Part shown: positions 34,521 through 45,569 of the stretch, in pieces | Layout of the letters: each line of letters opens with the position of its first letter | Numbering within the stretch: the stretch's first letter is position 1 | Source: Candidatus Heimdallarchaeota archaeon | GTDB lineage: Archaea > Asgardarchaeota > Heimdallarchaeia > Hodarchaeales > Hodarchaeaceae | Length of the DNA: 64,000 nucleotides | Direction of reading: 5' to 3' | Assembly (NCBI GenBank): GCA_011364965.1 | Contig: RDOB01000004.1 | Coordinates: 262,036-326,035 of the forward strand | Position numbers and translations under genes: made by a program | The notes under the pieces: model-generated | What the model saw: only the letters and a program-made list of their open reading frames with translations | Database searches by the model: none | What the model was told of the DNA's origin: nothing

Positions 34521-35252
34521 TTATGTTTTCCTATTCTGAATCTCCCGAAGAATATCAGGAAAATTCGTTAAAATCCCATCAACTCCCAATTCAATCGCAT
34601 TCTCCATAGATTTTTGATCATCAGCATAGAAATAGAATATTTTTATTCCATGCTGATGTGCTTCTGCAATAAATGAATGGGATAAGGCTGATTTTCGGAT
34701 TTGACACCACTTTAAATTCAAATCTAAAAGGAGACTTAAATATTCCTCTGATTTCCGTTCTTTTTGAAGTAATGCATAATTTCCCCTAGGTTCTAGATCT
34801 TGTAAACGTTGAATGTTCTCAATATGTCGAGCTGTAATCACGCAGCGATCTAATAAATTTACTGAATGGATTTGCTGCAAAACCATTTCTTCAAACCAAG
34901 GTGCATTCTCATCGAAATATTTTAGTTCGATGTTTAACTGTAAATTAGAAGGTTTTAGTAATATTAGTACCTCCTCAAATGTGGGAATTTTCTCCCCGTG
35001 ATAGGAATAGTGAAACCAACTCCCAGCATCTAGAGATCTTAATTCTTCAAACAGTAAACTGGTTAGTTTACCCTTTTCATTGGTGATACGTTCAATGGTA
35101 TCTCGATCATGAAATACCATAATATATTTGTCTTTAGAAGGTTGAATATCAAATTCAATCATATCTGCATAATTCATACCATTTTTAATGCAGGCTAAGG
35201 TATTTTCGGGACCTAAACTGGCCCCGCCGCGGTGAGCGATATTCAAAACCAT
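34521..35252 (-). CDS. Glycerophosphodiester phosphodiesterase
   Basis: IAHRGGA..PENT, IEFDIQ, NIELK, GVDGILTNFP. Confidence 0.94.
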   Translation of the reverse strand: MVLNIAHRGGASLGPENTLACIKNGMNYADMIEFDIQPSKDKYIMVFHDRDTIERITNEKGKLTSLLFEELRSLDAGSWFHYSYHGEKIPTFEEVLILLKPSNLQLNIELKYFDENAPWFEEMVLQQIHSVNLLDRCVITARHIENIQRLQDLEPRGNYALLQKERKSEEYLSLLLDLNLKWCQIRKSALSHSFIAEAHQHGIKIFYFYADDQKSMENAIELGVDGILTNFPDILREIQNRKT

Positions 35253-35303: not shown

Positions 35304-35316
35304 TCATATGGTAAGA
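35304..35316 (-). repeat. 13-bp motif TCTTACCATATGA, copy 1
   Basis: TCATATGGTAAGA on +; exact match to four other copies. Confidence 0.9.
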
Positions 35317-35363
35317 TGGAAATCTCTATAATTTAATAAAATTTAATGTTATACTAGAGAATT

Positions 35364-35936
35364 ATGAATTCTGGACTTTTAAAAAATTTAGTTGTCATAA
35401 TTGTATTAGGGCTTTCACTAGTATTTACGGCATTAATAGGATTAAATTTTCTTCCTTCAGCGAATATTATACCAAATCAGATACCAAATGCTATAGATCT
35501 GGCATTTGATCAAAGATGGTTTTTTGATGCCAATCTAGATAAATCTAATTATTCATTGAATGAAAATATCGTCGTTACAGTGAATTTTACCTGTATAAAA
35601 ACTCATATCTTGAATAATTATACCATTAATTATCAAGAGGGAAACTTTTTACCTCAATTTAGTATTCAAAATAGTTTTCAAACACTGTTTTGGAGACCAG
35701 AAGTAATTTATTCACCATCCCATACTTACAATACTTATACCATGCAAGAAGGAGTGAATAAGGGAGGAACATGGTCCTTTTGGATCAATCCTGAATTAAT
35801 GCCACCGATTTGTAATAATAGTTGTATTCCTACTCTTTCTACAGGTGAATACATTTTTGGAATTGGAATACCGGAGAATATTCTCGTAGATACTGACCTA
35901 ATTTCTGTGATTGAGATTTGTTTTTCAATAAAATAA
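35364..35936 (+). CDS. Hypothetical N-terminally anchored exported protein (Ig-like beta domain)
   Basis: N-terminal TM/signal; LDKSNYSLNENIVVTVNF...LSTGEY pattern. Confidence 0.6.
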   Translation: MNSGLLKNLVVIIVLGLSLVFTALIGLNFLPSANIIPNQIPNAIDLAFDQRWFFDANLDKSNYSLNENIVVTVNFTCIKTHILNNYTINYQEGNFLPQFSIQNSFQTLFWRPEVIYSPSHTYNTYTMQEGVNKGGTWSFWINPELMPPICNNSCIPTLSTGEYIFGIGIPENILVDTDLISVIEICFSIK

Positions 35937-36182
35937 CAACTTATGCATAGAGTAGCATTTTTGGCCAATCTATAGTGAACTATACATAGAAAAAGTGCTG
36001 ATCTTTTATAGATTGACGTTTTGCTATTAATACAGTCTCCATGAACCAGTATTCAGGAAAAATCACTATTCTACTAAATTGATAATAATATTTGATTATA
36101 TTAACAGCAAATTTCTGACTTTTTTTTAATACTCTTTTTCAAAAAGAGGTTTTAAGAAATTAGAACAGGAAAACAACTTCAT

Positions 36183-36195
36183 TCTTACCATATGA
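36183..36195 (+). repeat. 13-bp motif TCTTACCATATGA, copy 2
   Basis: Exact match. Confidence 0.9.
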
Positions 36196-36278
36196 TTTAA
36201 ATTCCCCTAGGTATTACCTTCAAATCCCACCCGCACCTTTCCTTCCATTCGGTGATTTCTATATATATATATTTATTA

Positions 36279-36291
36279 TCTTACCATATGA
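36279..36291 (+). repeat. 13-bp motif TCTTACCATATGA, copy 3
   Basis: Exact match; flanked by (TA)n runs. Confidence 0.9.
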
Positions 36292-36475
36292 TATTATATA
36301 TATAGATAACATATTACAATTTCTTATATAGTCGCGTATTACACTGAAATTACACCGTTTACATGTTTTTTGGACTAGTGGTACTACCTGTGTCTTCTTA
36401 CTCCATTCCGGTTTTTTTTGTCGATTTTTTTTTTCATTTTAAGCATCTAAATTTCAGCCTCTTCTAGATCCTAGT

Positions 36476-36496
36476 GTTCCATAGGAAATCAACGGG
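36476..36496 (+). promoter_or_regulatory. ORB-like element
   Basis: GTTCCATAGGAAATCAACGGG resembles archaeal ORB TTCCAnTGGAAA...GGG. Confidence 0.55.
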
Positions 36497-36590
36497 TCTG
36501 GGTTTTAACATTAATTTCATATGTCATAGTGAACTTTCAACAAGTGTAAAATTACCGTAAAGAAATAAAAAAAAGCTTGATTAACTCAAA

Positions 36591-36899
36591 TTAAGATTCC
36601 TGGATGACTTGATAGAATACTTTCGGCCGGCCTTTTGCTTTTCCAGACTTAGAATATTTTGTAACAACGTTTTTCAACATTAATCGTGTTAATGAATCAT
36701 AAATCGTTGTTCGAGGTATCCCTGTTTTTTCACACAAATCCATCCGTGTAGCAGGTTGGAACTCTTTCAAAGCACTTAAAACCATCACATCTGTTTTATT
36801 ATCTAAAAGATTGCTTAAGGAAAATTCATTTTTACTAGTTAGAATATCTTTTTCTTCGTCTACCAACGAGTTTCGCAAATATTGAGTCATAATTACCAC
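36591..36899 (-). CDS. Small wHTH (TrmB-N-like) DNA-binding protein
   Basis: TRMDLCEKTGIPRTTIYDSLTRL...GRPKVFY; paralogue of 38381..38689. Confidence 0.85.
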   Translation of the reverse strand: MVIMTQYLRNSLVDEEKDILTSKNEFSLSNLLDNKTDVMVLSALKEFQPATRMDLCEKTGIPRTTIYDSLTRLMLKNVVTKYSKSGKAKGRPKVFYQVIQES

Positions 36900-37136
36900 A
36901 GAGCGATTTTTTCACATATAATAACATATCCCCTCCACCAATATTTAAGATTTTCAGTATTACTTCCATTTAACTAATTTCAGAAACCATTTATCCCACT
37001 GTTACGTTAATAAATTTCTCTGGAGATCATTTACTCGTAAAGGAGAATACTGCTTTCTTTTCTTTCACACTTATATGCCTTTATCTAACTAAAATTCAGA
37101 AAACATTTTGATTTTGCATATTTTTGTGAAAAAAAA

Positions 37137-37327
37137 TTTCACAGGAAATAGAGGTTAAACTCCGCTGTAATTGATATAATTCCCAAATAATTCTTTTTAA
37201 TGCTTTAGCTTTTAATTCATCAATAGTTCATATTATCAATACAGAATTGAGTCTATATAAAAGGGTAAATTTAATTATTAACATGTATTCACATATTCAG
37301 TCTTACCCCCTCTATTTCCATTGGAAA
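37137..37327. other. Probable replication origin core (inverted ORB pair around an AT-rich spacer)
   Basis: TTTCACAGGAAATAGAGG (+, 37137-37154) and TTTCCAATGGAAATAGAGGGGG (-, 37306-37327), G-rich ends pointing inward; cdc6 lies 7 kb away. Confidence 0.65.
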
Positions 37328-37510
37328 ATTCAATAAAAGATTAATTTCTTTTCAGAGTAATTTCACAATGCGAACATCCTTTTTTTGAATAGAATTTTAT
37401 AAAAGTGTATTATTTGCTTTAATTAAGGATTTAAATATGCTTGAGGTTTAAATAGACATAAATCAGCCTTTATTCTTGGATCATAACGGTAATTTTCAAT
37501 TCACAAATAA

Positions 37511-37555
37511 ATTCGTGAATATATTTTAACTTGCGAATATGATTTTACTTGCGAA
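37511..37555 (+). repeat. Short direct repeats with an 18-bp period (ACTTGCGAA)
   Basis: ACTTGCGAA at 37529 and 37547; degenerate ATTCGTGAA at 37511. Confidence 0.5.
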
Positions 37556-37718
37556 GTTTTTAAGGAGGAATATTGAATATATTAACCATAATGGTATTAT
37601 TCTGGTATTGATTAAACTTTATTAGAGTGAAAAGTATTAAGGTAATTGTGAAATACAAATCGGTTTAACATATTATTTCCTGTTAAATCCCTTTTAGATC
37701 GGACCTAAGGTTATTTAT

Positions 37719-38201
37719 ATGCGTGAAATAGAATCTAAAGTCACTGCAAGTAACGATAAAATCACTATCGCTTTTGACAAGAAAATAAGACTAGGTCCAT
37801 TACATACATTAGTAGAAGGCTATTTGCAGCTTGATAGGGATCAAAAAAGACAAGTTGAGGATTTAATTGATTCATTACTGATCGAAAACGAAATTCCTTC
37901 GTCCTTTTCTTCACCAGCTTTCTCTAATGAAATTCCCCAGTCATTGACTGATGTAAAGATTAAGAAAGATCGAATTCTCTTGATTGTTAAGAATCGTGCT
38001 AATCCTAATTATCTAACCGCAAGAGAAATTCAGGAATTATACGAACATTATCTGAAGGAACCCGTTGGTATTTCTACTATTCAAACAAACCTCAATCGTC
38101 TAGTGGATGCAGGGCTAGTAGAGCGCCAAGAAGGAGTTAATCCTATCGAATATCGTATTAATTCCGAAAATGCGAAAAATATCCCTAAAATTCTTCTCTA
38201 A
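37719..38201 (+). CDS. Protein with a C-terminal wHTH domain (BlaI/Fur-like)
   Basis: LTAREIQELY...ISTIQTNLNRLVDAGLVER...EYRI. Confidence 0.8.
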   Translation: MREIESKVTASNDKITIAFDKKIRLGPLHTLVEGYLQLDRDQKRQVEDLIDSLLIENEIPSSFSSPAFSNEIPQSLTDVKIKKDRILLIVKNRANPNYLTAREIQELYEHYLKEPVGISTIQTNLNRLVDAGLVERQEGVNPIEYRINSENAKNIPKILL

Positions 38202-38380
38202 TTCCATCTCTTTCATCCCAAGAACATTTTCATTAAAAATAAATCATTTCTAATAGTTTTCCAATAATTTAACGTCATTATAATGAGTCTTACCCGTTCT
38301 AGTTTGGTAGATTCATAATGTCCACATATTCCTGTTGTTTATATGAATTCGAAAGGGGATTTAGAGTAGAGACATAAAAG

Positions 38381-38689
38381 GTGGATTTCATGTCTGGTAA
38401 TCAGGTTTTGAATATAACCGAAGAACACGAAGATAATTCTTCGCCCCTAGAATCAACATATGATAAAAGACGACCAGCTATAGTCCATGAGTTGGATCGA
38501 AACGTCTTAGCAATATTAAAAAACGAAGGTCCATTGACCCGATCGAAGTTAGTTTCACTTACTGGTATTGCTCGCTCAACACTCTATGATAGTTTATTAC
38601 GCCTCATTTTAAAGGGATACGTCGCCCGTTATTCTGAAGAACGTCGTCAACGAGGTCGACCTAAGGTTTACTACAAAGCCTCTCAATAA
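38381..38689 (+). CDS. Small wHTH (TrmB-N-like) DNA-binding protein
   Basis: TRSKLVSLTGIARSTLYDSLLRL...GRPKVYY. Confidence 0.85.
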   Translation: MDFMSGNQVLNITEEHEDNSSPLESTYDKRRPAIVHELDRNVLAILKNEGPLTRSKLVSLTGIARSTLYDSLLRLILKGYVARYSEERRQRGRPKVYYKASQ

Positions 38690-38720
38690 GTTTTAATTTT
38701 CTATGGAAAAGTATCTTAGT

Positions 38721-38733
38721 TCATATGGTAAGA
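38721..38733 (-). repeat. 13-bp motif TCTTACCATATGA, copy 4
   Basis: TCATATGGTAAGA on +. Confidence 0.9.
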
Positions 38734-38891
38734 TGATTTCCTTGAATGTCTATAAATTCATCTAGTAATAGACTATTTATTCAGCTATCCCACAGGTCTT
38801 ATAACAACTTTTTTTAAGGTTAATCCTTTTTTTACTTGATTTTTCACCTGATTGGGGAGATGAGAACCTATTTAAGCCATCCAAGTGATAA

Positions 38892-39188
38892 TATAAGGAT
38901 TATATTTATCAGCTCGATATCCAAGGTGTTTATACTCCTCTCAATGATCGCTGTTTGAAGAATCGTTTGTTAATGAAAATATTTGATCAAATGGCTTATG
39001 TTCAGAAGGTTGAAGACTTGATTATTGCTAAATTGATTTACAAGAGTCAACAAGATCTGGAAGATGCATTTTCGATCGTAAAAAGGCAGCAAGCAGGTTT
39101 AGACATGATATACCTTAGTAAGATAGCTGAACTTGAAGGATTGGAAGATCAACTAAATAATTTTTTAGCTAAGATCGGTATTAGGTAA
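38892..39188 (+). pseudogene. C-terminal remnant of a nucleotidyltransferase-fold (DUF6036-like) protein
   Basis: Frame reads YQLDIQGVYT...VEDLIIAKL...QQDLEDA..I; an in-frame TAA at 38889 precedes it and the N-terminal domain is absent. Confidence 0.55.
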
Positions 39189-39267
39189 ATAAAAACCATA
39201 AGTGTCGTCCTCTTTGGGAGAACATAAACATTAAGCAGTCTAATTTACAAGAATCTAATAATTCCAG

Positions 39268-40230
39268 TTATTTACTTCGATGAACGAGAAATATGCCAAT
39301 TACAATCAGAAACAAAGCACTAAAATGCACTATTGGATCAAACATTTCTCCCAAAAAAATGGCAGAGAAAGCGACCCCAAAAATAGGTACTAGGTTTTGA
39401 AAGATTGCTGCTTTACTTGCATTTAATCTTTTAACTCCTTCAAGATAGAACCAGTACCCTCCAATGGTAGATAAAAAGATTAAGTAAAAAAGACCGTACC
39501 AAACACGAGGAGGAATAGTAAGATAACTAGATATTAGAAGATATTCAGGATTGAGAATGAGGCCCACTGGTAAAAGTGTGAGTAATCCAAAGAAAGATAC
39601 CCATGTAATCAGATATAGGGATGAGGGATTAAATTCATCCCTCTTTACACTTAGAAACTGACGGGAGATCACAGTGTAACAGGCATAAGTCAAAGCTCCT
39701 GAAAAGATTAAGAAATTCCCCAAGAGACGATTGGAAACATCAACATTTGGGGAAAATCCTGTAACAACAAGGACTCCCCCAAATGAACAAATAGCTCCAA
39801 GAAGTTTGCTAGCATCAAAATTTTCATTTTTTAGAATAAAGCTTGATAATAAAATTACAAGCATTGGTAAAGTTCCGATAATCACAGAGGCGTCAGATGC
39901 AGAGGTATAAAACTCCCCAAACATATACCCGATTTGATAAATTGTCACTGAGGTTAGGCCCATGATGAAGAAAACTTTCCAGTGGTTTTTAACAAAAGAT
40001 AAGTGGAAAGATTTTTCCTGACTGTACAAAATGAGAAAAAAAATCCAAATTACAATAAAATATCGGATAACTGCGATCATTAATGGCGGGATTGTTGCTC
40101 CTCCAACTTCTGGGGAAACTAGCCATCGTCCCAAAGGCCATGTTCCTCCCCATATAACTGCCATAGCAATAAGGAGGCTATATGCAATATAATTAGAAGT
40201 CTTTTGAGGGTTTGTGTCCTTTAATGTCAA
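39268..40230 (-). CDS. DMT/EamA family transporter
   Basis: IWGGTW, about 10 TM, ASKAAIFQNLVPIFG...FLGE. Confidence 0.9.
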   Translation of the reverse strand: MTLKDTNPQKTSNYIAYSLLIAMAVIWGGTWPLGRWLVSPEVGGATIPPLMIAVIRYFIVIWIFFLILYSQEKSFHLSFVKNHWKVFFIMGLTSVTIYQIGYMFGEFYTSASDASVIIGTLPMLVILLSSFILKNENFDASKLLGAICSFGGVLVVTGFSPNVDVSNRLLGNFLIFSGALTYACYTVISRQFLSVKRDEFNPSSLYLITWVSFFGLLTLLPVGLILNPEYLLISSYLTIPPRVWYGLFYLIFLSTIGGYWFYLEGVKRLNASKAAIFQNLVPIFGVAFSAIFLGEMFDPIVHFSALFLIVIGIFLVHRSK

Positions 40231-40593
40231 AGTGATTCAGAAAAGGAAAGAAATGAATTAAGCTTATTCGGATTTTGGTGTACTAAATAATTTGATTTGA
40301 AATAATACCTAGTAGTCGTCTAATACCTAGTATTTGGTATCCTTTTCTTCCTAATCAGGATATTATTCCAACTTTAATTAATAAGATCCAGTTACTACTA
40401 CTAATATTTCTATGATTAACATAATTTAATTCTACTTGCTTTACCTATTCCGAAAAAAAGCCCGAAATGGACAAGTACACCTATCAAAATACATTATTAG
40501 ACTTTGAAATTTCAGTAAAAAAACTGTTCCTGAAATGCTTTAATGAAATCCATAGTCCTTTACTCGATTCATTTTAATTTTGAAGGTGAGTAA

Positions 40594-43584
40594 ATGATTA
40601 AAATTTCTTTGAAGAAATTCAATGGTTCAAAAAAATTACTTATATCCTTTCTTCTTTTATTCCTCTCGTCATTTTTGATAAATTCCCACACGATTAGTAA
40701 GGAATTTTTTCCAACTGATTTTGTTGCAACAAGTTTTATTGCTGATATCAGCAATAATACTATTTTTAGTAGTCCCAGCCTTTCTTCCGAAACTCCTGTG
40801 AGCAATGAATCTGTAAATGTTAATATTCTTATTTCCGACACTGATGGGATTCAGAATGCTACCTTATTTTGGCAATATTCTTCCATAAATACTACCTTGT
40901 TTAATACCTCAATGTTAATCGATGAGAATGCCGAAGTTATATATGAAACAGATTATCCTTTTGACAGAAACGGATATATTACTGATACCGGCGTTGAAAC
41001 ACCTTCTGTGACCAATTGGATGTTTGGTGAGACTATTTATGAAGGAACAGAAGGAGAAGTTTTATCAAACATTGATTTAACAATAATTAGATCAGGAGGA
41101 GGGGGGAATACAAACAGCTTGGTTTATATAAAAATTCAAGCTAAAAATATTACCTCAGGTTTTTGGGAAACAATAATAGAGGAAGGATCCATTGGAGGAA
41201 CATCAGAGGTAGTTCCATATCCGTATGATTTTACATCAACCCAATCTGTCGCTGGTTATCGAATTTATGCTATAACATATAAAAATACTCACAATATTAT
41301 CCAGCCACCGAGATTTGATCATCTCTATCTTTATCGTAATGAATATAGTGGTGAAATTTTAGCCCCTGATGAGCCAACGTTAGTTAATTACTATATACAG
41401 ATTTTTGATGATCTAAACCATTCAGCGCAATCAGATGAGTATTCTTTTTTAATGGATTGGGCTCCAGATGTTATTGTATATAAAATACCGACTGTTTTGA
41501 AAGGTTCTAGTGATTATATCCTCAATGTTAGTGTTTCAGATGAAGATGGAGTTAACACAATTAATCATTCTACTGTTGAAGCTCACTATCGTTTAGAAGG
41601 AGAACTTGAATGGAATAGTGTTACCTTAACGCATATAATAGACTTTGGTGGCTTTGCTCTCTACAATGGTACTATTCCAGGTAGCTTATTTCAGAATAGA
41701 GAAACATTCCTCTACTTTATGGTTAATGCTACTGATATTATTGATGAATCTCCTGGTTATACTGGGACTTCTGGATTAAAAACCGTTATTTTAGACAATT
41801 TGAATCCAAGACTAATAAACCTTGATTTAGATGGCGGAGTCATAGTACCAGGAGTTGAAAATCTAACTCTGGCTTCTTCCGTAGTCAATATTACTGCTGA
41901 TTTTGAGGATCCTTCAGGAATTTTGAGTGCATCAATCTATTATTCAATAGGTAATAATGGCATCTACACAAAATTACTTATGGAAAATACTACTAATGTA
42001 GCTCAATCAATAACAACATCATCCTATTTTGTTACTTTGCCAGCAACAAACACTACAGCTTATGTTAGTTATTTTTTCGAAACTTGTGATTACCTAAATA
42101 ATAAAGGAAATACTTCTCTTAATTTGTACTACGCTGATGGTGCAGCACCTTTATTGGACAGTTTAATTATTATTCCTGACCACATTTCAAACAATACTGA
42201 TGTCACCATTTTATACACTATTTCTGATTATACTGGAGTTCGTCAATCTGTTCTTTGGTACTCTTACGATGACGGTTTGTCATGGACTAATACTGTGGGT
42301 TATGAAATCGTTTATGATGATCATATTGACTATCAAGAATCTTTTACTTTTTCAGATCTTCCTTATATTATAGTAGATGATACTATTACGGTGCTTAACC
42401 TTGATGTTACGCGGAAAGGTTTAATTGGTTATGCAACTCTCTTGGTTAACTTCACTCACGAAAAGAGTACAGATGTTCGAATGTGGATCTCTAATGGCAT
42501 AAAAAATATAATGATTTTTGATAGAGTACTTTTTTCAGGTCTCTTTGAGGTAGATCTACTTGAAATTGGTTTTGTCCAAGCTGATTTTGATGATGCAGTA
42601 TTTAGTCTAATTATTGAGGATTATTCTCTATTATATTCGGGAATAATTACAGATTTCAAAATAAATCTATTACATTATGCATTTCCAGAAGGGTACGACT
42701 ATTATAGTATAATTCCGGCTTCACAGACAGATGCTACAATAGAGTTTTTTATTACACTTACTGACAATCTATGGAATACTCGAAATACCTCTAGCTATTA
42801 TTATTACTCTGACGGGATTGCTCCTTCTTTATCTACCACAATAATTCCTTCTCCTTATGATTTACATGGTGAAAATTCCGTTATGATTTCAGCTACGGTC
42901 ACGGATGAAGGAGGAATCGCAGAAGTTGAGTTCTATTATAAATACATGGAAAATGATGATTGGACTATTGCTTGTATGTCGTATTCAGACACTACATATC
43001 AATATTATATCCCATTATACAGTACTTCCGGTCATATTTATTATCAAATTAGAGCTTATGATTATTCAGGCATAACGACAATCAGTAGCATTTACTCCTT
43101 TGAATATATAAATGGTCTTGGCCCTATAGTAGAATTCAGTGACATTCCATATCCAAGTCCATTGGATCTTCAAGGTGCCTCTAATATAGAAATCAGAGTT
43201 AATGTAACTGACTTGGACGGAGTTATTGAAAGTGTGAATCTATTGTATCGATTTGACGTCTCTGAGAATTACTCAATTCTGGCAATGAATTTTGATTCAT
43301 CACTACAACTTTATGCGTCGAGAGTTACGATTCCATCAATAAATGGGATCCTTTCCTTTAAAATCATTGCTACGGATAACTTGGGCCTTGAAACAGAAAC
43401 TTCAGAGCAGCAGTTAGAGTATGTAAATGGATCCATTGAACCTTCTTCTGGAGTTGATTTTGGCACTTTTTTGATGGTATTAGCTCTAGTCAGTGTTCCA
43501 ACAATTTCAGCCGCAATTTTGGTCTACTGGCAATTTATTTTGAAGAAGAAAAAAAGCCTCAACCTTCCAACCCCACCTGAATAA
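40594..43584 (+). CDS. Large surface glycoprotein with Ig-like repeats, an inserted P-domain-like module and a C-terminal TM anchor
   Basis: Signal peptide; repeated V.D..GI..V.L.Y...YY..A.D..GN units; many NxS/T sequons; TM followed by KKKK. Confidence 0.75.
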   Translation: MIKISLKKFNGSKKLLISFLLLFLSSFLINSHTISKEFFPTDFVATSFIADISNNTIFSSPSLSSETPVSNESVNVNILISDTDGIQNATLFWQYSSINTTLFNTSMLIDENAEVIYETDYPFDRNGYITDTGVETPSVTNWMFGETIYEGTEGEVLSNIDLTIIRSGGGGNTNSLVYIKIQAKNITSGFWETIIEEGSIGGTSEVVPYPYDFTSTQSVAGYRIYAITYKNTHNIIQPPRFDHLYLYRNEYSGEILAPDEPTLVNYYIQIFDDLNHSAQSDEYSFLMDWAPDVIVYKIPTVLKGSSDYILNVSVSDEDGVNTINHSTVEAHYRLEGELEWNSVTLTHIIDFGGFALYNGTIPGSLFQNRETFLYFMVNATDIIDESPGYTGTSGLKTVILDNLNPRLINLDLDGGVIVPGVENLTLASSVVNITADFEDPSGILSASIYYSIGNNGIYTKLLMENTTNVAQSITTSSYFVTLPATNTTAYVSYFFETCDYLNNKGNTSLNLYYADGAAPLLDSLIIIPDHISNNTDVTILYTISDYTGVRQSVLWYSYDDGLSWTNTVGYEIVYDDHIDYQESFTFSDLPYIIVDDTITVLNLDVTRKGLIGYATLLVNFTHEKSTDVRMWISNGIKNIMIFDRVLFSGLFEVDLLEIGFVQADFDDAVFSLIIEDYSLLYSGIITDFKINLLHYAFPEGYDYYSIIPASQTDATIEFFITLTDNLWNTRNTSSYYYYSDGIAPSLSTTIIPSPYDLHGENSVMISATVTDEGGIAEVEFYYKYMENDDWTIACMSYSDTTYQYYIPLYSTSGHIYYQIRAYDYSGITTISSIYSFEYINGLGPIVEFSDIPYPSPLDLQGASNIEIRVNVTDLDGVIESVNLLYRFDVSENYSILAMNFDSSLQLYASRVTIPSINGILSFKIIATDNLGLETETSEQQLEYVNGSIEPSSGVDFGTFLMVLALVSVPTISAAILVYWQFILKKKKSLNLPTPPE

Positions 43585-43595
43585 TTTTTATAAAA

Positions 43596-43630
43596 GGGAG
43601 CTTAACCAAGTGCTCCCTCTACTTTTTCTT
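43596..43630 (+). terminator. Hairpin plus T-tract after the surface protein gene
   Basis: GGGAGC-N10-GCTCCC followed by TCTACTTTTTCTT. Confidence 0.5.
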
Positions 43631-43717
43631 GCAGTTTTAAGAGATATTTTGCTTTACTATTCATTCAATACACCAACCTTTAGCTTTTTAATTAATCCCT
43701 CATTATTAGAGGTATCT

Positions 43718-43730
43718 TCATATGGTAAGA
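43718..43730 (-). repeat. 13-bp motif TCTTACCATATGA, copy 5
   Basis: TCATATGGTAAGA on +, 25 bp upstream of the DUF6788-like gene. Confidence 0.9.
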
Positions 43731-44306: not shown

Positions 44307-45569
44307 TTGTTCCTACACTATTTGGTGAGTGAACTATCATTGAATCAACAAGATCAGACTGAGTCCACATTAGATGAAATTTTTGAGGGTTATCTCAAAT
44401 CTCCGAAGTTATTTAAGCGCCGTGATGTTCTGGATAGTTCATTCGTTCCCGAGAATCTTCCTCATCGTACAGACCAAATCAAACAACTCGGGTATATTTT
44501 AGCTTCTGTTTTACGGGGTGCAAAACCTAGTAATATTTTATGCTTTGGTAAGACTGGTACGGGGAAAACTGCTGTATCTAAATATGTCTTGAATATCCTT
44601 AGCAAGAAAGCACCTCAAGAGGGCTTTCGTATTGAAGTAGCTTACTTAAACTGTAATTCAGTTGATACTAATTACAGAGTTTTTGCAGATCTGTGTAGTA
44701 CTCTTGGTATTGAGGTACCTTTTACAGGTTTAGCAACGGATGAAGTCTTTTCTAGATTTAAATCAGGCCTTGATCAACGTGATTCATTATTCATTGTTGT
44801 TTTGGATGAAATAGACAGCTTAATTAAAAAATCTGGAAATGAAACACTTTACAATCTTACTCGGATAAACGCAGATTTAACTCGTGCCAAGGTAAGTCTT
44901 ATTGGCATTTCCAACGATTTAAAGTTCAAAGAGTATTTGGATCCTCGTGTACTTTCCTCTTTATCTGAAGAGGAAATTGTATTCAAACCTTATGAGGCTC
45001 CTGAAATTACTGACATTCTTGTAGAACGGGCTCAAATCGCTTTTCAAGAGGAAACACTTTCCGAGGGAGTTATTAATATGATTGCAGCTATTGCTGCTCA
45101 GGAACATGGAGATGCTCGCCGAGCTATCGATTTATTACGGGTTTCTGCGGAAATTACTGAACGCGAAGGGAAGAAAGTTATTGGTCAGGACCATGTGAAA
45201 AAGGCACAAGGAGCTATTGAAAGGAATACTATCACTGAAGTAATAAGTACGTTACCCCTTCAATCTAAAATGGTAATATTAGCCATTCACTTGCTGGAAT
45301 ATCAAATCGGTAATTCCGAATCTGTTTCTACTGGAGACGTTTATGAGGAATACGCTCGTATCTGTAAAGAGACGGGAATGGATTCTTTGACGCAACGGCG
45401 AGTGGGAGATCTAATTAATGAATTAGACGCTTTAGGTGTTATTACAGCTCGGGTGGTATCTCGTGGTCGACATGGACGTACAAAAGAAATTCGCTTCAGT
45501 ATCCCTAAGTCACTTGTTGATTCTATTCTTCGGGAAGATAAGATGCTTTCTAGTAATATCGAATGGTAA
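44307..45569 (+). CDS. cdc6: Orc1/Cdc6 replication initiator
   Basis: PENLPHR, GKTGTGKT, VLDEID, LDPRVLSSL, GDARRAIDLL, C-terminal wHTH SRGRHGRT; true start probably ~44340. Confidence 0.96.
   Translation: MFLHYLVSELSLNQQDQTESTLDEIFEGYLKSPKLFKRRDVLDSSFVPENLPHRTDQIKQLGYILASVLRGAKPSNILCFGKTGTGKTAVSKYVLNILSKKAPQEGFRIEVAYLNCNSVDTNYRVFADLCSTLGIEVPFTGLATDEVFSRFKSGLDQRDSLFIVVLDEIDSLIKKSGNETLYNLTRINADLTRAKVSLIGISNDLKFKEYLDPRVLSSLSEEEIVFKPYEAPEITDILVERAQIAFQEETLSEGVINMIAAIAAQEHGDARRAIDLLRVSAEITEREGKKVIGQDHVKKAQGAIERNTITEVISTLPLQSKMVILAIHLLEYQIGNSESVSTGDVYEEYARICKETGMDSLTQRRVGDLINELDALGVITARVVSRGRHGRTKEIRFSIPKSLVDSILREDKMLSSNIEW

Follow-up and report, generated by a model that had tools for sequence, protein, structure and literature searches.

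What purpose is served by a 13-bp word that recurs, letter for letter, around the putative replication origin of a Heimdallarchaeota chromosome is the question raised by the locus described here. The DNA analysed (hereafter the window) is a stretch of 64,000 nucleotides (nt), positions 262036-326035 of contig C12 in a Candidatus Heimdallarchaeota archaeon assembly (2.97 Mb, 16 contigs, 87% complete; G000), and the word, TCTTACCATATGA, had been proposed in a first-pass annotation of the window as a centromere-like or origin-organising site. Judged from the comparison of sequences, the 13-mer is a real, genus-conserved and origin-linked element, and its binding by a protein is likely. The reading favoured below, for which confidence and doubt are about evenly balanced, is that it is a high-specificity operator of a winged helix-turn-helix (wHTH) protein encoded at the locus, lying beside the transcription factor B recognition element (BRE) and TATA box of origin-flanking genes.

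The 13-mer in the window and the genome

An exact search recovered all five copies listed by the first-pass annotation, with the same coordinates and strands. They lie within 8.4 kb, and each is also called an arm where pairing is discussed; ORB3 is an origin recognition box (ORB)-like element of the same locus.

35304-35316, minus strand: motif copy 1 (the distal arm), TCTTACCATATGA, exact
36183-36195, plus strand: motif copy 2, TCTTACCATATGA, exact, on the far side of ORB3
36279-36291, plus strand: motif copy 3 (the proximal arm), TCTTACCATATGA, exact, separated from ORB3 by about 24 nt of AT-rich DNA
38721-38733, minus strand: motif copy 4, TCTTACCATATGA, exact, 31 nt past the wHTH3 stop codon
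43718-43730, minus strand: motif copy 5, TCTTACCATATGA, exact, 25 nt ahead of the ATG of the DUF6788-like gene

All five copies are intergenic, occur in both orientations and have A/T on either side, and the dyad character earlier ascribed to them is present as the pseudo-dyad TCwTA-N3-TAwGA, in which 8 of the 13 positions are self-complementary. The window holds no further exact copy, as had been noted by eye, and copies with one or two mismatches are absent as well. When the window was shuffled 100 times with dinucleotide composition preserved, the 13-mer was present at a mean of 0.01 copies and five copies were reached in 0 of the 100 shuffles. Counting over the whole genome gave six exact copies, five of them around the origin, against about 0.2 expected (Markov order 3-5), a 25-fold enrichment; the sixth was located at C14:103793, near a nucleotidyltransferase gene. 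Since five of the six copies fall in 8.4 kb of 2.97 Mb, the cluster cannot be chance, and both the exactness and the clustering of the copies are matters of direct observation. Copies with one mismatch numbered 10 genome-wide against about 8.5 estimated from base composition, which is the chance level.

The core of the word is the 11-mer ATATGGTAAGA, orthologous sites in relatives differing from the 13-mer at the first two bases only (TG, TA, AC, CC or TT). It was found 11 times in the assembly against about 3 expected, and outside the origin locus it is at background in genomes G010, G001 and G003. When the five window copies were aligned, similarity ended at one flanking A/T per side, and the repeat is not longer than 14-15 bp.

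The origin locus and the placement of arms in the genus

The features among which the copies lie, and to which the comparison with related genomes refers, are the following.

34521-35252, minus strand: glycerophosphodiester phosphodiesterase (GDPD) gene, with motif copy 1 in its upstream region
35364-35936, plus strand: lineage-specific membrane open reading frame (ORF) of 190 aa (ORF190), between the distal arm and the ORB unit, absent here in relatives
36225-36255, minus strand: ORB3, ORB-like (dyad and G-run), TCACCGAATGGAAGG..GGTGCGGGTGGGA on the minus strand, TCCAGTGGAAGGAAAGGTAGGGGTGGGA in most relatives
36591-36899, minus strand: wHTH1, TrmB-like winged-helix protein of 102 aa (Pfam TrmB, 5.4e-09)
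36900-37718, no strand: core oriC candidate with mini-ORB, canonical ORB and TTCACA boxes, aligned in 15 genus genomes
37719-38201, plus strand: wHTH2, 160 aa: hairpin/helical N-terminal part, winged helix in the C-terminal part, conserved IPxxLL at the C-terminus
38381-38689, plus strand: wHTH3, TrmB-like winged-helix protein of 102 aa (Pfam TrmB, 5.7e-07)
38734-43717, no strand: lineage-specific insert of about 5 kb between direct motif copies, with a 77-aa ORF and genes for an EamA transporter and a surface protein of 996 aa
43756-44088, plus strand: DUF6788-like protein of 110 aa with a CGKxxCxC..HGPY motif (Pfam DUF6788, 7.1e-07), upstream of orc1 and syntenic in the genus
44307-45569, plus strand: Orc1/Cdc6 initiator (Pfam Cdc6_C, 6.4e-30), one of four genomic paralogues

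The exact 13-mer is carried by 20 of the 21 genomes of the genus, with 0-1 copies of a reversed control word per genome. Because the word has been kept while wHTH2 diverged to 44-73% identity among these genomes and the spacers became unalignable, the 13-mer is under selection. The number of exact copies ranges from 1 to 14 per genome; where there are only 2-3, most or all of them lie in the origin locus, and some relatives have 10-14 copies over many contigs.

The first-pass annotation was right that the word is not an ORB and overlooked that two of its copies bracket one, at 36225-36255. In the GDPD-wHTH1 spacer an arm stands 20-35 nt from an ORB-like box in all 15 recovered genomes, and a second, inverted arm (the 13-mer or TTCTTACCAGG) is found beyond ORB3 in most of the 15. 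The proximal arm is exact in 10 of the 15 genomes and differs at bases 1-2 only in the remaining 5. The same annotation had stated that the copies keep no constant distance from start codons, which is true within the window. Across the genus, by contrast, the arm in the spacer before the DUF6788-like gene keeps its place: in 9 of 11 genomes it stands 28-30 nt ahead of the ATG, with a T-run after it, and nothing besides the arm and this T-run is conserved there. Motif copy 5 is the orthologue of this genus-wide site. Upstream of GDPD, about half of the recovered genus genomes also have an arm at 36-65 nt from the start, the others having an exact arm further off or only a one-mismatch arm near. 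Conservation, arrangement and linkage to genes are thus likewise read directly from the genomes.

About 74% of the 97 exact genus sites are intergenic, and around these 97 sites no similarity extends past two nt on either side of the motif. Several exact copies are coding coincidences inherited among orthologues (the ATP-binding cassette (ABC) ATPase C-terminus, phosphoribosyl pyrophosphate synthetase and aldehyde ferredoxin oxidoreductase); in five genomes (L042, L043, L056, L070 and L023) the 13-mer encodes ..L-I-W-stop of the ABC ATPase before an FtsX-type permease gene, a coincidence that inflates the copy counts. The genes beside the dispersed copies are functionally unrelated, and since this is so and several copies are coding coincidences, no regulon is claimed from the 10-14 dispersed copies. 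Viral contigs were also scanned for the 14-mer and for the palindrome described below; among the matches listed, only single matches per contig were found, which is roughly the chance level and uninformative.

In some respects the window departs from its relatives. Because of two lineage-specific inserts it has five copies where most relatives have three. The 190-aa ORF separates the distal arm (35304) from the ORB unit, and copy 2 is direct to copy 3, not inverted, which is a rearranged form of the genus pattern. Copy 1 stands in the divergent spacer of GDPD and the ORF at 35364-35936, with 51 nt between it and the ATG of the former and 47 nt between it and that of the latter, and is followed by TATA-like stretches. 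In relatives the order is wHTH3, motif and DUF6788-like gene, without the insert of about 5 kb, of which copy 4 forms the left boundary here. Copies 4 and 5 (38690-38733; 43700-43730) share GTATCT 0-4 nt upstream, which relatives do not have; this suggests that about 20 bp were duplicated upon the arrival of the 5 kb insert. Each arm abuts an AT-rich, TATA-like stretch, as seen before the DUF6788-like gene, GDPD, ORF190 and the nucleotidyltransferase gene of the sixth copy, and in the subclade of G013, G002 and G020 extra genes, each accompanied by an arm beside a TATA-like stretch, separate GDPD from the ORB unit.

The surrounding gene order, MutS, MoxR, vWA, GDPD (minus), the ORB-bearing spacer, wHTH1 (minus), an 820-bp AT-rich gap, wHTH2 (plus), wHTH3 (plus), DUF6788-like gene (plus), Orc1/Cdc6 (plus), PolD small subunit (minus) and AglB (minus), is conserved in the genus. 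A GDPD orthologue of a relative (245 aa, 59% identity to the window protein by tblastn) matched Pfam GDPD at 2.5e-34, a score that belongs to this orthologue and not to the window protein. wHTH1 is a paralogue of wHTH3, with 48% identity over the winged-helix part. The 820-bp gap is the likely core origin: in the 15-genome alignment it contains a conserved mini-ORB (37137-37149) and a canonical ORB with G-run (37306-37328, minus strand), which face each other with about 170 bp of AT-rich, unconserved DNA in between, and it has zero copies of the 13-mer. ORB3 sits about 650 bp from it, across wHTH1, in the GDPD-wHTH1 spacer. The cumulative GC skew stays flat over contig C12 and gives no indication of the origin, and Rfam and tRNA scans of the window gave no match at the motif sites and no Rfam family in the window.

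Some further sequence features of the locus were observed. At least six conserved TTCACA/TGTGAA boxes were seen in the 820-bp gap (36900-37718), together with two strongly conserved blocks, ATATTTAAGATTTTCAGTAT by wHTH1 and GGTATTGATTAAACTTTATTAGAGTGAA by wHTH2, which are probably two divergent promoters or additional binding sites. In the ORB3 unit of relatives (e.g. L013:6290-6480 and L016:3270-3420), two extra conserved boxes, CAT(G/A)WTATGA, flank the proximal arm and the ORB; they form an inverted repeat in some genomes (CATGTTATGA ... CATAACATGA) and have been lost from the rearranged unit of the window. A link between motif and ORB through GGTAAGA, which the 13-mer has in common with the G-run end of the canonical ORB of the window, was considered and rejected, that end of the ORB being unconserved in relatives.

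The sister-family palindrome and the candidate binder

In the sister family the arm occurs in paired form. All 12 sampled genomes carry a palindrome of 33-34 bp, TCTTACCAC-RY-AA, 7-8 AT-rich bases and TT-RY-GTGGTAAGA, in 1-12 copies per genome; it was found in 0 of 16 sampled genus genomes and in 1 of 17 genomes of four further families. Its arm aligns base for base with the genus 13-mer, with differences at positions 9 and 12 and at the variable RY of positions 10-11. The genus uses single arms (TCTTACCA-TATGA), and the sister family pairs two facing 13-bp arms. Of 35 palindromes 33 are intergenic. Seven of the 12 genomes have one at a distance of 3-5 kb from orc1, and in G028 and G038, whose genomes are complete, the only palindrome stands 5 kb from orc1.

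The most regular neighbour of the palindrome is a homologue of wHTH2 of 148-153 aa (pairwise E 4e-10, full-length alignment), and in 9 of the 10 genomes with that gene 1-3 palindromes start 33-100 nt past its stop codon. Behind the genes of distant wHTH2 homologues (families f4, f6 and f7) there is no palindrome. Two or three successive palindromes, about 50-70 bp from start to start, were seen at L367:2530-2680 (G046) and L368:2480-2590 (G052), the series starting 33 nt past the stop codon of the wHTH2 homologue and offering six or four arms of alternating sense.

For the choice of a binder, wHTH2, the pair wHTH1/wHTH3, the DUF6788-like protein and the four Orc1/Cdc6 paralogues were compared. 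The genus member G001 (94% complete) is without wHTH2, wHTH1 and any non-coding motif copy, and keeps wHTH3, the DUF6788-like gene, orc1 and all four Orc1/Cdc6 paralogues. The presence of the Orc1/Cdc6 paralogues therefore does not track the motif, four being found in G001 with zero non-coding copies. In the sister family a wHTH3 orthologue stands directly before orc1 and wHTH1 is lacking; members of the wHTH3 family are present in one further family as well, at places away from orc1, and in that family the motif was not found. Because of the loss in G001, the occurrence of the wHTH3 family where the motif was not found and the absence of wHTH1 from the sister family, wHTH2 follows the sites more closely in presence and position than any other candidate, a correlation among related genomes. 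Among the wHTH proteins of the locus, the binder is most likely wHTH2 (37719-38201) on this evidence, the TrmB-like pair wHTH1/wHTH3 being the next candidates. The first-pass annotation had named the adjacent wHTH proteins or the DUF6788-like protein; linkage and co-occurrence favour wHTH2 within this set, and the DUF6788-like protein is kept in G001 without non-coding copies.

The wHTH2 family is tiny, with 7 clusters at E <= 1e-30 among 1.8 billion representatives, and in a model of the protein (pLDDT 74) the C-terminal winged helix is nearest RosR, PadR, MarR and Fur. The C-terminal IPxxLL was seen to be conserved in both families and may be a short docking peptide for a partner. In G001 the origin locus is rearranged (L093, G001:C24:1-15000), the GDPD-ORB unit and all arms being missing.

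The operator reading and its rivals

At the DUF6788-like gene the arm covers about -42 to -30 from the ATG; given an mRNA with a very short leader or none, this is the BRE/upstream position. A protein bound beside BRE/TATA would help or hinder the recruitment of TFB/TBP. Expression of the origin-flanking genes (GDPD, the DUF6788-like gene ahead of orc1 and the genes later inserted beside extra arms) would be set in this way, and the arm pair around ORB3 could also affect Orc1 occupancy there. That a protein binds, which protein it is and how transcription would respond are inferences. The place of the site relative to the start codon, 28-30 nt before the DUF6788-like ATG in the 9 of 11 genomes, is fixed, as would be expected of a wHTH operator. 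Archaeal operators of this kind (TrmB/TrmBL1 with the TGM motif, RosR, and the MarR and PadR types) likewise involve a small winged-helix protein encoded beside its presumed targets and a short dyad-like site directly beside a TATA-like stretch. They differ from the present case, in which the site follows the gene, the arms, asymmetric and 13 bp long, stand singly or 25 bp apart centre to centre, degenerate copies are lacking, the core copies are linked to oriC and convergent spacers contain many of the sister-family copies.

Several observations weigh against the operator reading. The site is downstream of the gene of its candidate binder, unlike in the usual upstream autoregulation, and an all-or-none word of 11-13 bp without degenerate copies is unusual for a regulon operator. 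Copies 2 and 3 of the window lie in a convergent spacer, as do 11 of 32 intergenic palindromes, and because of these 11 the palindromes are not simply promoter elements; in the sister-family genus g8 the conserved copy also sits in a convergent spacer, with no gene to drive. Arms point both ways with respect to the nearest gene (20 forward, 22 reverse), and both orientations fit the pseudo-dyad of the arm. Two sister-family genomes have palindromes without a detected wHTH2 homologue, namely G032 and G024, the orc1 contig of the latter ending 2.6 kb beyond orc1. By co-occurrence, wHTH3, the DUF6788-like protein or an Orc1 paralogue could still be the binder, and the related genomes are non-independent samples.

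That the arms instead load or anchor an origin-proximal nucleoprotein complex, with the wHTH2 family as the binder of the site, is a possible but rather unlikely explanation; the complex might serve as a centromere-like platform, as an accessory initiator comparable to WhiP or plasmid iterons, or as an origin-delimiting barrier. Core copies are always origin-proximal in the two families, arms bracket the ORB in 15 genus genomes, arrays of 2-3 palindromes stand directly behind the gene of the candidate binder as in parB-parS and sopB-sopC, and the near-invariant sequence, the low and variable copy number and the many copies away from promoters point the same way. The sites of ParB (parS), SegB and AspA are likewise few near-invariant, origin-proximal dyads of variable copy number beside a presumed binder gene, and five of the six copies of the genome lie within 9 kb of orc1 and the ORBs. 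Unlike those systems, the locus has as its candidate binder a plain winged helix and not ParB or a ribbon-helix-helix protein, and it has many copies at promoter positions. The co-occurring ParA or SegA to which the first-pass annotation had pointed was not found in or near the locus: AAA_31 and CbiA matches are on C11, C13 and C16, and on C12 there is only one such match, below the cut-off and about 18 kb past the last copy. ParB_N (PF02195) gave no match in the 87% complete assembly, controls being matched in 10 of 14 genomes. This twofold lack counts against the origin-organising explanation, as do the resemblance of wHTH2 to ordinary regulator-type winged helices, the extra copies of relatives scattered over many contigs beside unrelated metabolic genes, the fixed start-codon spacing of 28-30 nt, which suggests a promoter role, and an 820-bp core origin without an arm. 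With the mini-ORBs of Orc1/Cdc6, which are also about 13 bp, the word shares the form of a short repeated box at an archaeal origin by initiator genes; the bona fide ORBs of the locus (36225-36255, 37137-37149 and 37306-37328) carry the TCCAnTGGA-type dyad, with a G-run in full ORBs, whereas the 13-mer has neither the TCCAnTGGA dyad nor the G-run, is absent from the core origin and also occurs away from origins. The iterons and inverted half-iterons of plasmid Rep proteins are similar in that the arm is single near the origin and an inverted pair elsewhere, with a winged-helix gene adjacent; here, by contrast, the core origin has no tandem direct iterons, the protein one winged helix and not WH1-WH2, and the locus is a chromosomal Orc1/Cdc6 one. 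WhiP at oriC3 of Sulfolobus documents that an origin can be defined by a winged-helix protein distinct from Orc1 (review, PMC4010727). Of the centromere-like or origin-organising proposal, the specific, selected element of the origin locus stands, and the partners expected of segregation were not found and the arms adjoin TATA-like stretches; a promoter role is at least as likely as a centromere role.

Other explanations have less in their favour. A site for site-specific recombination or cassette insertion, improbable on the whole, would account for the 33-34 bp palindromes with 13-bp arms and a 7-8 bp AT spacer, a 13-(7-8)-13 layout of inverted arms in the sister family that resembles the 13-8-13 of loxP/FRT-type sites, for copies 4 and 5 as direct repeats with a common upstream GTATCT around DNA absent in relatives, and for the same-sense arm arrays with single genes between them in G013, G002 and G020. 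However, no integrase or transposase, nor any recombinase family, was found among the scanned neighbours (about 30 in the genus and 36 in the sister family), the genus has single arms that lack a partner at the appropriate distance, orthologous sites have persisted across the divergence of families, and up to 12-14 sites per chromosome would be hazardous. An arm with its TATA-like stretch, moreover, resembles a duplicated promoter, and no homologues of the genes inserted in the window were found beside other arms. A signal of the basal machinery or at the RNA level, either an extended BRE-like element read by a TFB/TBP variant or a palindromic 3'-end hairpin, is quite improbable: GGTAAGA stands exactly at the BRE place, just before the T-run ahead of the DUF6788-like gene, and palindromes are over-represented in convergent and tandem spacers, but with respect to the TATA-like stretch and the gene the arm is found either way round, the copies are far too few for a basal element, the single arms of the genus are unable to form a hairpin, the sequence and not pairing alone is conserved, and the window has no Rfam family match. 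Least probable is a selfish short repeat, like a repetitive extragenic palindrome (REP) or a miniature inverted-repeat transposable element (MITE), or a word surviving by shared ancestry. Copy numbers of 1 to 14 between genomes and the exact copies that are inherited coding coincidences would agree with it; the lack of similarity past two nt over 97 sites, the lack of a transposase nearby, the orthologous positions kept while flanks diverge, the 25-fold enrichment and the extreme clustering would not. The terminus of an insertion sequence or MITE, which the first-pass annotation had thought of as a way in which its proposal might fail, and a REP element are ruled out, since neither the 97 sites nor the five window copies belong to a longer unit and the positions are orthologous.

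As far as the literature was searched (on the words, on Asgard origins and on DUF6788), the pair of cis element and candidate protein is undescribed; the chromosomal origin is not treated by Wu et al. 2022 (PMC8813620). If the 13-mer is a local operator only, what has been found is an ordinary, though neatly conserved, pair of regulator and site. What the locus offers is a defined cis element with an invariant core of 11-13 bp and three small winged-helix proteins beside oriC/orc1, and a natural comparison set, with single arms in one family, palindromes in its sister family and one genome without gene and sites. For the Hodarchaeales and Heimdall-type Asgard archaea at large, it is suggested only tentatively, as a doubtful prospect, that the wHTH2 family and the 13-bp arms may form an undescribed origin-proximal system, either a centromere-like anchor without ParB/SegB or an accessory initiator or boundary factor beside Orc1 at ORBs, in which gene and site would have been inherited together since before the two families split.

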